DNA of 64,000 nucleotides, from assembly GCA_041937175.2 (NCBI GenBank), contig CP166615.1:576001-640000 (forward strand). Reading direction: 5' to 3'. The stretch comes from Limnothrix sp. BL-A-16. GTDB taxonomy: Bacteria; Cyanobacteriota; Cyanobacteriia; CACIAM-69d. This document shows, in pieces, positions 29,284 through 34,423 of the stretch. Numbering within the stretch: the first letter of the stretch is position 1; every line of letters begins with the position of its first letter. Below the pieces are notes generated by a model, which worked only from the letters and a program-made list of their open reading frames with translations, was not told the origin of the DNA and did not search any database. The position numbers were made by a program, and so were the translations under genes.

Positions 29284-29501
29284 GGGCTTACGGCCGCACG
29301 CCCTCCGGTGTCTGCTATGCCCGATCGCCCCGATCGGGTTGGTTTAGTGGGTTGCATTGTGCCCAATCAATGGGGCGAGGCCGGTTCGGCGATCCGCAAG
29401 TGGCTTCAGTACAATTGCAAGAAAATGTGAGGTGCGATCGCCCATGGCCCGCAACCAGCAGGGGTTGATCGCCCCAAGATCGCCCCAATCTAGGCAAGAC
29501 G

Positions 29502-29909
29502 ATGGAACCCACCACATTGGCATTGGCAGGTATCGCGGTTTTGATGGCCAAAAAGTCCGCAGAAACCGTCAGCGAGGTTGTAACGAAGGAGGCACTGGAG
29601 GCGACATTGCCAGCCCTGAAGGCCGTCGCGGGACAGTTGGCGGCTCCGCTGCGCGATCGGGTGGCGGCCTTGGGCGATCGGGTGGTGGCGCGGCTCCCGG
29701 CGGCCAATCTGGAAAATCCGTTCGATGATTTGGCGTTGTTGGAGGCGATCGTGGTGGAAGAGGCGGCCGATCCGGCAATGGCAGCCACGGTTGATGAGGT
29801 GGTGGCGGCGGTGGCTCCGATCATGCCTGCGATCACGATCGAAAACTGGAAAGGCATCAACGTCAAAGGCGGTCAGAATACGATCTCGGGCAACACCTTC
29901 CAATTTTGA
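29502..29909 (+). CDS. Small helical protein, candidate Bell-type cell-death effector with a C-terminal amyloid signalling motif
   Basis: Hydrophobic N-terminus MEPTTLALAGIAVL; helical body; C-terminal ENWKGINVKGGQNTISGNTF is shared with the downstream NLR N-terminus. Confidence 0.7.
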   Translation: MEPTTLALAGIAVLMAKKSAETVSEVVTKEALEATLPALKAVAGQLAAPLRDRVAALGDRVVARLPAANLENPFDDLALLEAIVVEEAADPAMAATVDEVVAAVAPIMPAITIENWKGINVKGGQNTISGNTFQF

Positions 29910-29922
29910 AGCGGCGAGGGCG

Positions 29923-30387
29923 ATGGAGATGAGTGATCGAGCCATTACCTACGACAGCGACTTCTATGGCTGGGTGCAGCAACAAACGGCGCTGATTCGC
30001 CAAGGCCAGTGGAGCGAGCTGGACGCGCAGAATCTTTTGGAGGAGCTGGAAAGCTTGGGGCGATCGGAAAAGCGGGCGTTGATTAGCCAAGTGGCGCGGC
30101 TCTGTGCCCATCTGCTGAAGTGGCGCTATCAACCGGCCAAGCGCAGTCGATCGTGGGTGTTGAGCATTCGCAGTGCCCGCCAGGAAATTGCGGCGATTTT
30201 GCGCGATAACCCCAGTTTGCGCGCCAAGTTGCCGGAGGTGTTTGCGGATGGCTACGATCGCGGTCGGTTGATGGCCCTCGAAGAAACGGGCCTGGCCGAT
30301 CGCGAGATTCCCGAGGTTGCGCCCTTTGATTGGCAAACGGCGATCGAACAGCCGATCGATCTGAACTCCCCCACCGATGCCCCATGA
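29923..30387 (+). CDS. DUF29 family protein
   Basis: YDSDFYGW...LLEELESLGRSEK...HLLKWRYQP..RSRSW...NPSL...ETGL; start 29923 or 29929. Confidence 0.88.
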   Translation: MEMSDRAITYDSDFYGWVQQQTALIRQGQWSELDAQNLLEELESLGRSEKRALISQVARLCAHLLKWRYQPAKRSRSWVLSIRSARQEIAAILRDNPSLRAKLPEVFADGYDRGRLMALEETGLADREIPEVAPFDWQTAIEQPIDLNSPTDAP

Positions 30388-33194
30388 GTGACCCGCAACA
30401 ACCGCAGGAAAATTGGCAAGGGTTGAATATCAAGGGCGGTACGAATGATATTCACGACAATGCGTTTAATCAAAACCATAGCGGCCCAGGCGATAACGTT
30501 GCGGGCGATAAGAATGTCACCGTCCAGCCCACAACCCAGCAAGGCAATGTCTTCGATGGCCAGTCGCAGGGGCATTTCTATGGCCCGGTGAATCAATATT
30601 TTGTGCCGCCGCCGCTGGAGCCGACGATCGATGGGCCGCCCAACAATCTGACGAAGTATGGTTTGTCGCCCGATCGCTTTGTGGGGCGGGCGGCGGACTT
30701 GGCGCGGTTGCATGGGCTGTTGCAGACCCAAACCCAAGTCGCCATTGCCGGGGTGAGTGGTCTGGGTGGCGTGGGCAAGAGCGAGCTGGCGTTGCAATAT
30801 GCGCGGGCGCACCTGGGCGACTATCCCGGCGGGGTGGTGTGGTTGCGGGCGGCGGCGGCCTGTGGGGAGTTGGTGGCCTTTGCCCAGCCCCGTTGGTTTG
30901 CCCAGGTGGATTTTACGCCGTTGGACACCCTGGAAAAGCAGGCGATCTTTTGCCAAGCCCATTGGCCCAACACGGCCCAGAATCCGCCGGGTCGGGTGTT
31001 GTTGATTTTGGATGATGTGACGGATTTTGGGGGGCAGGTGCAGGGGTTTCCAGTGGTGGGCGATCGGTTTCGGGTGCTGATCACCAGTCGGGAAAAATAT
31101 TTGCTCCCCGAGGCGCGGCTGGATTTGGAGGTGTTGGAACCAGCGGCGGCGTTGGCGTTGTTGAGCAATTTGGTGGGGGAAAGTCGGATCGCGGCGGAAT
31201 GGGCGACGGCGGAGAAGCTGTGCGAGTGGTTGGGTTATTTGCCCTTGGGGTTGGAGTTGGTGGGCAGCTATTTGGCGGCGGATCCAGAGTTGTCGTTGGC
31301 CAAAATGCAGCAGCGGTTGGAGCAGAAACGGTTGGCGGCCAAGGCGCTGACCCAAGTGCCCGCCACCACAACAGCCGAACGGGGTGTGGCGGCGGCCTTT
31401 GAGTTGAGTTGGCAAGCCTTGAGCGAGGAAGCACAACGGCTGGCGGTGTTGTTGGGTTGTTTTGGGCCGGCTCCGGTGTTGTGGGCTTGGGTGGAAGGCT
31501 GTTTGCCCAACGATGACGAGGAGGATTTGGAGGCGGCGCGGGCGGAGTTGGTGCGGTTGAGTTTGTTGGAGCGGCTGGGCGATCGGCAATATGGCTTGCA
31601 TCCGCTGATTCGGGAGTTTTTCGCGGCCAAGCTGATGGATCAGGCGGATAGCCTTGACCTCAAAATTGCTGTGGCTGGGGAATTGCTACGGGCAACGAAA
31701 TCGATCAGCCAAACCATGACCCTCGACCAAGTGCAGGATCTAGGAGCGGTGATTCCCCATGCTAGGGCCGTGGCCGAGTGGCCAGATCGAGCAGAAGCGA
31801 TCGCTGACTTACTCGCTCGGCTGAATAATCAACTGTGCTCGTTCTACTATTCCCAAGGGCTATTTAGTTTGGCGGAGGTTTGGGCCAAGCGATCGCTAGA
31901 AATTCATGAGCGATTGCTGGGAGCCGACCATCCCGACACCGCCACCAGCCTCAACAACTTGGCATACCTCTACTCATCCCAGGGACGGTACGAGGCAGCG
32001 GAACCCCTCTTGCGGCGATCGCTGGAAATCAAAGAGCGAGTGCTGGGAGCCGACCATCCCGACACCGCCTCCAGCCTCAACAACTTGGCAGGACTCTACT
32101 ATTCCCAGGGGCAGTACGAAGCAGCGGAACCCCTCTACCGGCGATCGCTGGAAATCCATGAGCAAGTGCTGGGAGCCGACCATCCCGACACCGCCACCAG
32201 CCTCAACAACTTGGCATTACTCTACCAATCCCAGGGACAGTACGAGGCAGCAGAACCTCTCTTCCGGCGATCGCTGGAAATCTGTGAGCGATTGCTGGGA
32301 GCCGACCATCCCGACACCGCCACCAGCCTCAACAACTTGGCAGCACTCTACTATTCCCAGGGACGGTACGAGGCCGCGGAACCCCTCTACCGGCGATCGC
32401 TGGAAATCTGTGAGCGATTGCTGGGAGCCGACCATCCCCACACTGCCCAAAGCCTCAACAACTTGGCAGCACTCTACTATTCCCAGGGACGGTACGAGGC
32501 CGCGGAACCCCTCTACCGGCGATCGCTGGAAATCCGTGAGCAAGTGCTGGGAGACGACCATCCCGACACCGCCCAAAGTCTCAACAACTTGGCAGGACTC
32601 TACTATTCCCAGGGACGGTACGAGGCCGCGGAACCTCTCTACCGGCGATCGCTGGCAATCCGTGAGCGAGCACTGGGAGCCGACCATCCCCTCACCGCCA
32701 CCAGCCTCAACAACTTGGCAGAACTCTATCGATCCCAGGGACGGTACGAGGCAGCGGAACCCCTCTACCAGCGATCGCTGGAAATCTGGGAGCAATTGCT
32801 GGGAGCCGACCATCCCCTCACCGCCACCAGCCTCAACAACTTGGCAGAACTCTACCATTCCCAGGGACAGTACGAGGCAGCAGAACCCCTCTACCGGCGA
32901 TCGCTGGAAATCCGTGAGCAAGTGCTGGGAGACGACCATCCCGACACCGCCTCCAGCCTCAACAACTTGGCAGGACTCTACGAATCCCAGGGACGGTACG
33001 AGGCAGCGGAACCCCTCTACCGGCGCTGCTTGGAGATTTTTCTAGAAAAACTCGGTCAAGACCATCCCAACACCCAAACCGGTCAGAAAAATTTCCGCAT
33101 CTTCGTGCAAACCATCCTCGAAGCCGATCGCGCCGCCGACCTCTCCGACCACCCCCTCACCCAATCCCTCCTGCAACAATTGCAGAATCCTTAA
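30384..33194 (+). CDS. NLR-like STAND NTPase (NB-ARC) with C-terminal TPR repeats and an N-terminal N/Q/G-rich motif region
   Basis: FVGR; Walker A GLGGVGKS; Walker B LLILDDV; LITSR; YLPLGL; LHPLIR; nine 42-aa TPRs; ATGA overlap with the DUF29 stop. Confidence 0.92.
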   Translation: MSDPQQPQENWQGLNIKGGTNDIHDNAFNQNHSGPGDNVAGDKNVTVQPTTQQGNVFDGQSQGHFYGPVNQYFVPPPLEPTIDGPPNNLTKYGLSPDRFVGRAADLARLHGLLQTQTQVAIAGVSGLGGVGKSELALQYARAHLGDYPGGVVWLRAAAACGELVAFAQPRWFAQVDFTPLDTLEKQAIFCQAHWPNTAQNPPGRVLLILDDVTDFGGQVQGFPVVGDRFRVLITSREKYLLPEARLDLEVLEPAAALALLSNLVGESRIAAEWATAEKLCEWLGYLPLGLELVGSYLAADPELSLAKMQQRLEQKRLAAKALTQVPATTTAERGVAAAFELSWQALSEEAQRLAVLLGCFGPAPVLWAWVEGCLPNDDEEDLEAARAELVRLSLLERLGDRQYGLHPLIREFFAAKLMDQADSLDLKIAVAGELLRATKSISQTMTLDQVQDLGAVIPHARAVAEWPDRAEAIADLLARLNNQLCSFYYSQGLFSLAEVWAKRSLEIHERLLGADHPDTATSLNNLAYLYSSQGRYEAAEPLLRRSLEIKERVLGADHPDTASSLNNLAGLYYSQGQYEAAEPLYRRSLEIHEQVLGADHPDTATSLNNLALLYQSQGQYEAAEPLFRRSLEICERLLGADHPDTATSLNNLAALYYSQGRYEAAEPLYRRSLEICERLLGADHPHTAQSLNNLAALYYSQGRYEAAEPLYRRSLEIREQVLGDDHPDTAQSLNNLAGLYYSQGRYEAAEPLYRRSLAIRERALGADHPLTATSLNNLAELYRSQGRYEAAEPLYQRSLEIWEQLLGADHPLTATSLNNLAELYHSQGQYEAAEPLYRRSLEIREQVLGDDHPDTASSLNNLAGLYESQGRYEAAEPLYRRCLEIFLEKLGQDHPNTQTGQKNFRIFVQTILEADRAADLSDHPLTQSLLQQLQNP
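31921..33054 (+). repeat. Nine near-identical 126-bp TPR-coding repeats
   Basis: Unit (A/D)DHPxTAxSLNNLAxLYxSQGxYEAAEPLxxRSLEIxExxLG repeated 9 times with high DNA identity. Confidence 0.92.
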
Positions 33195-33205
33195 ACCATT
33201 CATCC

Positions 33206-33565
33206 ATGACCAGCAACGGCCAAACCAATATTCCACCACTCGCCCAAACCCAATCCATCAGCGGCACACCCATTCGCATCACTCACCAGCAATGGGCCCA
33301 CATCACCGAAAACCACGACTACATGGCCGGTTGCCTCGATCTGGTCATTGAAACCGTCAGCGATCCTGACCTGATTGCTAATGGCTGGACAGACGAAAAA
33401 ATCGCCCTTCGCCACTACCCCAAAACCCCAATCACTGAGAAAAACGCCGTCGTTGTCTACAAAGAAACCAGCCCCGAAGATGGCTTCGTAATCACCGCAT
33501 TTTTGACCTCAAAACCCCACAAAATCACCCAACGAGGAATCCAATGGCAACGCCCGCAATCCTAA
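33206..33565 (+). CDS. Putative BECR/RelE-like toxin (nuclease fold)
   Basis: IRITHQQWAHI..H...VVVYKE...GFVITAF pattern; overlaps a downstream DUF2283-like gene. Confidence 0.55.
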   Translation: MTSNGQTNIPPLAQTQSISGTPIRITHQQWAHITENHDYMAGCLDLVIETVSDPDLIANGWTDEKIALRHYPKTPITEKNAVVVYKETSPEDGFVITAFLTSKPHKITQRGIQWQRPQS

Positions 33566-33768
33566 ACGCCATCCCCCATCTGCTCCAGGCCCCCTCCAAC
33601 CAAATTTGGAGTAGCTACGACCCGATCGCCGATGTGCTCTATCTCAGCTTTCGCAAACCCCAAAACGCCAACGACAGCACCCTCGAAGACAACATCATCT
33701 ACCACTATCACAACGAAATCTTGGTCGGTTTAACCATCCTGAACGCCAGCCAAAACCGGGCCGCATAA
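33544..33768 (+). CDS. DUF2283 family protein (putative antitoxin)
   Basis: SYDPIADVLYLSF...LVGLTILNAS. Confidence 0.75.
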   Translation: MATPAILNAIPHLLQAPSNQIWSSYDPIADVLYLSFRKPQNANDSTLEDNIIYHYHNEILVGLTILNASQNRAA

Positions 33769-33812
33769 CCCGATCGCCCTTCCCGCCAAAAACCGGATCG
33801 GGATCCCGAGGG
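33768..33812 (+). repeat. 45-bp direct repeat, copy 1 (copy 2 at 34581-34625)
   Basis: acccgatcgcccttcccgccaaaaaccggatcgggatcccgaggg is identical at both sites. Confidence 0.9.
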
Positions 33813-33911
33813 GTGATCAACGGTGCGTGGGAGACAACCCAACCCAACCGTTACCCCAAAAGCGTTCTCCCACTTACCCTACGCGATCCACTCAACGCCT
33901 AATCCCGCCTG

Positions 33912-34106
33912 ATGCCCGCCAAAGACCTCTACCACAACGCCATTAAAAACGCCCTGATCACCGACGGCTGGACAATCCTCGCCGATCCCTATCGCATCGA
34001 ATACCAAGACGATCTCCTACTCGCTGACCTCGCCGCCGCCCGCCCGATCGCCCCCGTAAATCCAGACACCCCGGAGATCGTTTTATGGACACCGCAGCGT
34101 ACCTAA
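33912..34106 (+). pseudogene. xisH: XisH family protein with an internal deletion
   Basis: N-terminus MPAKDLYHNAIKNALITDGW.I.ADP...LADLAA is joined directly to a C-terminal-like VNPDTPEIVLW; only 64 aa; the VEIKSF nuclease core is missing. Confidence 0.75.
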
Positions 34107-34423
34107 ACATCCTCGAAGCCACCGTACAGGACTACCACGACTGGGCAAACCGAGCCGCCAGCGACACCGATGAAAACTGCCTGATCATCGATCGCGATCG
34201 GGGTTACTGCCTGTGGCTATGCGTTGGCTGGAAAAACCGCAAACGCATCGAAAAAATCATGATTTTTGCTCGCCTCAAAAACGGCAAAATCTGGATCGAA
34301 ACCGACGAAACCACCGACGGCATCGCCACCGACCTGATGCGAGCTGGCATTCCCAACACCGATATCGTCCTTGGCTTCCTTGCTCCCGAAGAGCGCCCCC
34401 TCTCCGAATTCGCGCTGGCATGA
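34085..34423 (+). CDS. xisI: XisI family protein
   Basis: IIDRDRGY...GW...KNGKIWIE.D.T.DGIA.DL..AGIP..DIVLGF. Confidence 0.88.
   Translation: MDTAAYLNILEATVQDYHDWANRAASDTDENCLIIDRDRGYCLWLCVGWKNRKRIEKIMIFARLKNGKIWIETDETTDGIATDLMRAGIPNTDIVLGFLAPEERPLSEFALA

Follow-up and report, generated by a model that had tools for sequence, protein, structure and literature searches.

An NLR of Limnothrix sp. BL-A-16 with three unrelated signalling-type motifs in tandem: a candidate multi-partner sensor

The locus and its N-terminal motifs

The complete 4.56 Mb genome of the cyanobacterium Limnothrix sp. BL-A-16 (G000; assembly GCA_041937175.2) contains, within the 64,000-nucleotide stretch analysed here and called the window (G000:C1:576001-640000; contig CP166615.1, forward strand), a gene for a NOD-like receptor (NLR)-type protein of 936 residues whose N-terminus carries three different motifs in tandem (30384..33194, + strand; coordinates without a contig are positions in the window). 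Two smaller genes precede it on the same strand, one encoding a Bell-type effector of 135 residues (29502..29909, +) and one encoding a DUF29 protein (29923..30387, +; PF01724, E 5.7e-45), and the NLR start codon at 30384 overlaps the DUF29 stop (ATGA), a junction that is identical in arrangement at the related locus L007. Within the NLR, motif 1 is BASS7 (amino acids (aa) 9-29; 30408..30470, +), motif 2 appears to be of BASS11 type (aa 29-48; 30468..30527, +), and motif 3 falls in a family that is linked to Bell genes, has a BASS5-like tail and gave no match to BASS1-11 here (aa 52-73; 30537..30602, +). They are followed by a Pro-rich linker (30603..30647, +) that is common to alleles with differing motifs, by an NB-ARC domain with Walker A and Walker B both intact (PF00931, E 2e-9; aa 106-318; 30699..31337, +), and by an array of TPR repeats matching TPR families (about aa 517-903; 31932..33092, +).

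The share of Asn, Gln and Gly in the first 76 residues of the NLR is 41%, against a mean of 17%, and only 0.13% of 47,672 windows from the genome's open reading frames of at least 300 residues are as rich or richer. Pairwise alignments of motifs 1, 2 and 3 (together residues 9-73) were no better than shuffles (p 0.30-0.88), so that the three are mutually unrelated and three repeats of one unit can be ruled out, whereas the alignment of each motif with its partner class reached p = 0.0005, the floor of a test with 2000 shuffles. One cross-score, that of motif 2 against the BASS7 tail of the Bell, was borderline (p 0.048). An assembly artefact was likewise ruled out, as a contig from sequencing run X4 spans 29359-30703 unbroken with 26 differences and the N-terminus of a second protein, P0002, is the same.

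A preliminary description of this DNA had proposed that three different signalling motifs stand here in tandem, the second and third with no partner in the window. Both peptides that it quoted are present and in frame with the NLR starting at 30384, and each of the three motifs was also seen singly at the N-termini of further NLRs as well as on effector-side proteins, which bears out their signalling type. The absence of local partners was confirmed as well: across the genome, a motif-2 profile matched the NLR plus two proteins encoded outside the window, three in all, and a motif-3 profile matched the NLR only.

Mosaic origin of the array

At the DNA level, the 5' end of the NLR gene is a mosaic that matches three loci in turn: L007 over positions 29904-30460 (89% identity), L004 over the sequence that starts at 30471 and includes motif 2 (near identity), and L003 over positions 30529-32029 (91% identity). 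The same 11-base word occurs at the junctions between motifs 2 and 3 and between motifs 2 and 4, motif 4 being a variant that fills the slot of motif 3 in other alleles. A search with NLR residues 1-110 found ten proteins: this NLR, P0002 with the same triple, one with motif 3 only (P0003), one with BASS11 and motif 4, two with BASS7 and motif 4, three with a BASS7 variant (P0007-9), and one with BASS7, motif 4 and BASS11. In P0002, 98 of 102 N-terminal residues are identical to those of our NLR before the sequence switches to a distant NB-ARC, and the X4 contig carries the Bell, the DUF29 gene and the triple cassette running into that same NB-ARC. The cassette has been transferred, as a unit, to another NB-ARC. 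Modular gain and loss among orthologous N-termini, for which the preliminary description had asked one to look, was seen at both the protein and the DNA level, all three motifs being kept in homologs and motif 2 being present in other proteins encoded by the genome, so that the refuting condition set in that description did not hold.

The tandem arrangement is not peculiar to this gene. We read 21 NLR N-termini from G000, G001, G002, G004 and G007, assigning motifs 2 and 3/4 by profile and the others by eye, and leaving out G003, G005 and G006 (one motif-less N-terminus read, no NLR match, fragments). Two or three families stand together on 8 of the 14 motif-bearing N-termini (the window NLR, L039, L010, L029, L013, L106, L107 and L104), a count that is not a statistical result because the genomes are kin. 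These cover two genera and differing orders, namely 7+11+3, 7+4+11, 11+4, 11+3 and 7+4, where 7 and 11 denote BASS7 and BASS11. Single-motif NLRs exist for motif 3 (L003, P0003), the BASS7 variant (P0007-9), BASS11 (L031, L105, L014) and motif 4 (L071, L143). In G004, one NLR bears by itself a further N-terminal motif starting GGDY, which follows BASS11 on a second NLR (L013, L146).

The prevalence of such tandems in two genera, intact and in frame, and the transfer of the triple as a unit both speak against the idea that only BASS7 works and that motifs 2 and 3 are harmless short in-frame leftovers of successive 5'-end swaps. That idea gains from the ease with which junctions of microhomology would make accidental tandems, from the position of the locus among toxin-antitoxin-like and Xis genes, and from the description of BASS pairs as adjacent genes in the accessible part of Dyrka et al. 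(bioRxiv 10.1101/2020.01.06.895854). It loses from the retention in motif 2 of the Q, D and N positions that Bab needs for foci (see below) and from the activation of unlinked effectors predicted in fungi in the accessible parts of PMC7889193 and PMC9815663. On balance we regard it as possible but doubtful.

Directly 3' of the NLR (33206-34423) come genes for PBECR2 and DUF2283, an XisH that is truncated to 47 of 134 model positions, and XisI. Elsewhere in the genome, a second intact NB-ARC/TPR gene (L030; G000:C1:3186936-3189119) is motif-less, overlaps a separate upstream gene of 165 residues, and occupies the locus where L007 has its three-motif NLR.

Candidate partners of the three motifs

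For motif 1, the partner is adjacent. The Bell gene begins its 135 codons collinear with the NLR and ends 474 bases upstream of it, and its product has a hydrophobic first helix with Glu at position 2 and is modelled as five helices with a disordered tail (pLDDT 70), the architecture described for Bell proteins. Its C-terminal motif (29838-29906) aligns with motif 1 at a score of 75 (p 0.0005) and is nearly identical to the BASS7 examples of set C12 in the accessible part of PMC8086366 supplement 1, whose README maps C12 to BASS7. No Pfam or NCBIfam model names this Bell, and a Foldseek search of the PDB, in which likeness to Bab, HeLo or MLKL was sought, gave no match at E <= 0.001. Between the window and L007, ten codons of motif 1 are changed silently and six with a change of residue. 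With an NB-ARC and TPR sensor, a collinear five-helix Bell whose length and distance lie within the usual limits (120-140 aa, 5 kb), and a shared motif, the locus has the features of a Bell/BASS/NLR pair, and based on these sequence features we conclude that motif 1 is BASS7 and that the window holds a candidate amyloid signalling pair.

For motif 2, a 28-residue segment from the window matched only two of 18,950 models, GapS6a at positions 87-104 (E 0.0037) and GapS6b at positions 1-18 (E 0.092), and its Q...DN spacing is that of Bab Q92, D99 and N100. According to the accessible part of Ibarlosa et al. 2024 (bioRxiv 10.1101/2024.11.07.622273), BASS11 is a proven anti-phage amyloid tag of the E. 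coli Bab/Agp system and mutation of these three residues of Bab abolishes foci. A profile built from eight copies of motif 2 matched 213 proteins among 1.84 billion representatives, and in the best 150 of these the motif stands at the C-terminus in 47, near the N-terminus in 49 and internally in 54, as rough classes that include many fragments. The profile retrieves Babybell homologs carrying the motif at the C-terminus. When 26 chosen matches were scanned, five exceeded the NCBIfam GapS6a cut-off, among them P0137, which matches the Bab structure (PDB 9h9v, E 3e-12), and one of the 26 resembles Avs2 with an N-terminal motif. Profile and residue spacing, with GapS6a/GapS6b taken to be Bab/Agp, point to a BASS11-type tag. 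Numerous small membrane proteins among P0012-P0160 also bear a BASS11-type motif, often duplicated, and in EAD11 and CHAT proteins it stands at the C-terminus; P0086 has another motif-like segment before its own copy.

The genome contains exactly three motif-2 matches, the NLR and two proteins some 1.53 and 0.22 Mb away, and no gene adjacent to the NLR bears the motif. The first, L001 (G000:C1:2137538-2139604, -), is a pentapeptide/membrane protein of 688 residues with motif 2, two further short repeats and a middle domain that belongs to no named family, and the second, L002 (G000:C1:825256-826587, -), is a leucine-rich repeat (LRR) protein of 443 residues. None of the three carriers is a Babybell effector or a TPR-GreA-PIN sensor with motif 2; the NLR uses a BASS11 tag yet is not a Bab/Agp system. 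In both L001 and L002 the motif directly precedes a C-terminal domain, which for L001 is modelled as five helices (pLDDT 80), and a profile from the two domains and their relatives found in the genome only these two and one remnant. The domain has no Pfam name, its ESM Atlas relatives fall in unnamed cyanobacterial and Bacteroidota clusters without a Pfam family, and its fold gave no Foldseek match at E <= 0.001, the best VIA Z of 6.7, to a designed bundle, being uninformative. L002 looks, from its sequence, like a Roco protein that lost ROC-COR. It is one of three tandem LRR genes (G000:C1:821911-826587, equal to L002:2912-7588, -), of which one keeps BASS11 and the helical domain, and the remnant of the helical domain sits between the other two. 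A complex of three NLR N-termini with the motif and C-terminal domain of L002, predicted in a run without controls, scored 0.01, a value taken as no verdict either way.

Gene context in other cyanobacteria suggests what this domain may do. It follows the motif in 21 of the best 150 motif-2 matches, and at 6 of the 12 loci listed a pair of reversed polarity was found: the BASS11-type tail closes a Roco (COR) gene, and the motif then opens the helical module of the gene behind it (L048, L050, L051, L055, L057, L061). The COR domain was confirmed in all six of these upstream genes, and the downstream gene is small, either stand-alone or fused to DUF4926. At L047, L049, L059, L060 and L064, Roco, motif and helical domain are fused in one protein. 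In G004, the motifs at the N-terminus of the helical domain are different ones, and each agrees with the tail of its own upstream gene (L126, L131, L137; one of the upstream genes is DUF6232); they would represent further unnamed motif families. Across all nine adjacent pairs tested (six COR/BASS11 and three with other motifs), the N-terminal motif of the domain matched the C-terminus of the upstream gene at p <= 0.001, and cross-scores between the six and the three were low. The five-helix domain is probably a motif-controlled partner, and its gene context suggests an effector role. On G026:C3 (L103/L056/L017), an NLR and its convergent neighbour share two tandem motifs, one BASS11-like and a second, and the neighbour has a C-terminal helical domain of a second type.

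BASS11 is also found inside proteins, as in EAD1-motif-FGE proteins (FGE-sulfatase; L111, L113, L114) and the Roco fusions. EAD1 genes with a C-terminal BASS11 (L108, L109) were considered as adaptors and set aside; L109 continues in frame into an NB-ARC past one stop, and they may be broken fusions. Placement of the motif behind an effector domain and ahead of the remainder of the protein (in L111, L113 and L114, in the EAD1-motif-NB-ARC reading of L109 with its one stop, and in the Roco fusions), its internal position in more than a third of the best 150 matches, and a heading in the accessible part of PMC9815663 that proposes internal motifs as scaffolds would all suit another explanation, in which the extra segments of our NLR are structural, as beta-solenoid rungs or a scaffold speeding, stabilising or restraining nucleation, or serve as an input port for other BASS11 sensors. 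The known multi-rung cases are pseudo-repeats of one motif, whereas the motifs here are unrelated in sequence, and a fixed composite fold would not easily allow order and content to vary as freely as they do. We consider this explanation improbable, and more so than that of leftovers.

For motif 3, the partner is best seen in other genomes. At the matching locus of the sister genome G001 (L003/L040, with a purU-like gene downstream) the NLR carries motif 3 only and the situation is mirrored, with a motif-3 Bell intact upstream of the NLR and the BASS7 Bell decayed; the Bell of L004 matches motif 3 still better than does the G001 Bell (score 62). Adjacent Bell/sensor loci with the motif 3/4 family number five (L003, L004, L071, L086, L100), and at L004 variant 3 is paired with variant 4. 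Dyrka et al. require at least five non-redundant adjacent pairs for a new BASS, and the five loci here include two from one genome and a family drawn by eye; we regard motif 3/4 as a candidate new BASS family. Six words searched for this family were absent from the examined part of the BASS1-10 data (PMC8086366 supplement 1). Some BASS5 members in the accessible part of that source (set C07) end like the motif-3 Bell side, with an FNAP-V/I-T tail, or like motif 4, but motifs 3 and 4 begin QQG/QKG, without the K-L/F-A-E/D-K-I lead of the BASS5 sequences, a comparison made by eye only. A motif-3 search of 201 genomes gave 20 matches in 17 genomes, of which five were the training sequences, seven weaker ones were read (four are real Bell tails and three are not) and eight were left unread. 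A pattern scan of metagenomes returned 11 stretches, of which two are NLR genes (L071, L076) and nine were dropped as chance matches, and a weak Bell match in G004 (L122) was spurious.

The motif-3 Bell of G000 itself (C1:895288-896817, -; L038:4289-5818) is syntenic to the L004 Bell and is cut by a deletion inside the motif. The deletion joins the truncated Bell in frame with what is left of its NLR, the winged-helix and TPR part; the NB-ARC is gone, only the first half of the motif is kept, and this remnant half does not align with motif 3 (p 0.18). A wider profile found no other copy in G000 (next best E 1.6). Motif 3 is likely a relic in this genome, since the sole Bell for it breaks off partway through the motif. 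The deletion joint, present in all four runs from four studies, shows that the fusion of Bell, winged helix and TPR is a standing allele, and it might have a role of its own.

The preliminary description had offered two alternatives, that one sensor is wired to several effectors encoded elsewhere or that the extra motifs are relics of swapping. Each holds in part, for different motifs of one array: wiring in trans is possible for motif 2 alone, because its two carriers are unlinked and their signalling only putative, and does not apply to motif 3, for which the relic alternative is the likely one in this genome. The array was thus assembled by swapping; its first motif has a local link, its second may link in trans, and its third is orphaned. 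Two of the three tags are known families and the third is a candidate new one.

Interpretation and comparison with known systems

We favour the reading of this NLR as a multi-plug adaptor, in which one plug serves a local link, a second may serve a link in trans and the third is idle, and we give this reading a probability of roughly 0.5. Recombination between the 5' ends of NLR genes would have brought three independent amyloid-signalling cassettes together, to travel from then on as a unit. By analogy with HET-S/NWD2 and Bab/Agp, a ligand, probably phage-derived, would bind the TPRs, the NB-ARC would oligomerise, and the clustered N-termini would nucleate cross-beta stacks that could serve as templates for every cellular protein with the same motif. 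BASS7 would act on the Bell encoded nearby, which would attack the membrane with its first helix, and BASS11 might act on L001 and L002, in which it precedes the five-helix domain, probably an effector of reversed polarity. Motif 3 would be idle, its Bell lacking the second half of the motif. Such an array would let a sensor remain useful after its arrival in a genome whose effectors differ, and would branch its output where two partners are present. That one NLR indeed activates two or three unrelated effector pathways through tandem tags, with the BASS11 tag leading into a reversed-polarity branch where the tag ends Roco GTPases and other sensors and begins a small five-helix effector, is a tentative proposal that we think unlikely as it stands.

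Several observations weigh against the adaptor reading. Motifs 1 and 2 abut without a linker and may not fold independently, a point that suits a structural role. In L001 and L002, BASS11 is fused behind the proteins' own repeat domains and, because it is also an internal segment of fusions, may serve there in cis. The G001 homolog of L002 is a Roco protein of 956 residues with a closely similar C-terminal domain, whereas L002 is without ROC-COR, and no Roco was found in G000. Silent and residue changes number 2 and 4 in motif 2 and 1 and 0 in motif 3, too few to show selection. Orphan motifs occur widely. In G002 (99% complete), whose NLRs bear BASS7 and BASS11, a single Bell was found, with motif 3, and nothing to partner BASS11; in G004, two NLRs bear motif 4 while a Bell of this clade was not found; and the deletion joint in four of four runs means that motif 3 is kept across strains without that Bell. 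These orphan motifs, the truncated Bell, and the unlinked BASS11 carriers, one of them apparently a Roco without ROC-COR, are also what the leftover account would expect.

If that tentative proposal of several pathways per NLR is true, amyloid signalling in these cyanobacteria would be a rewirable network with exchangeable plugs and not a set of parallel gene pairs. Amyloid signalling has been described as one sensor, one motif and one adjacent effector, with seeding barriers separating the pathways, and a natural sensor with three orthogonal tags would allow a direct test of tag stacking for branching and of why orphan tags persist. The analysis also ties BASS11, an experimentally proven tag, to cyanobacterial NLRs and Roco proteins, singles out a five-helix domain that has no name as a candidate reversed-polarity effector, and suggests that bacterial Roco proteins might function in defence. 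The constructs for such work could be limited to short peptides plus small genes of a freshwater cyanobacterium.

In the literature within reach of our search (figures, bioRxiv supplements and most subscription journals lay beyond it), we found no description of heterologous tandem motifs on a bacterial NLR or of Roco proteins with amyloid tags. Among the closest known systems are the Bell/NLR pairs with BASS1-10 of Dyrka et al. As far as the accessible text goes, they are like our locus in having a Bell collinear and upstream of an NB-ARC/TPR gene, with motif 1 being BASS7, in the G/N/Q-rich motifs of 20-25 residues, and in the host group of filamentous cyanobacteria. Those pairs have one motif per NLR, and repeats on the Bell side are copies of one motif, whereas the window NLR has three unrelated families in tandem and a DUF29 gene intervenes between it and the Bell. 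Bab/Agp (BASS11; GapS6a/GapS6b; PDB 9H9V), in the published portion available, is alike in the profile match of motif 2 and in its Q...DN spacing, but the carriers in this genome have the motif before a five-helix C-terminal domain and are not Babybell or TPR-GreA-PIN proteins. Two precedents come nearest to a tandem array. One is a double configuration (NLR19+NLR34) mentioned for five sequences of Tuber, where the passage concerned gives no paired effectors (PMC9815663). For the other, in the accessible parts of PMC5485727 and PMC7889193 on branched amyloid signalling in fungi (the sigma cluster of Het-eN/SESA/SESB, the PP motif and HRAM), one NLR is predicted to reach several effectors, some of them unlinked. 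Branching in fungi uses one shared motif, whereas here it would use several different ones.

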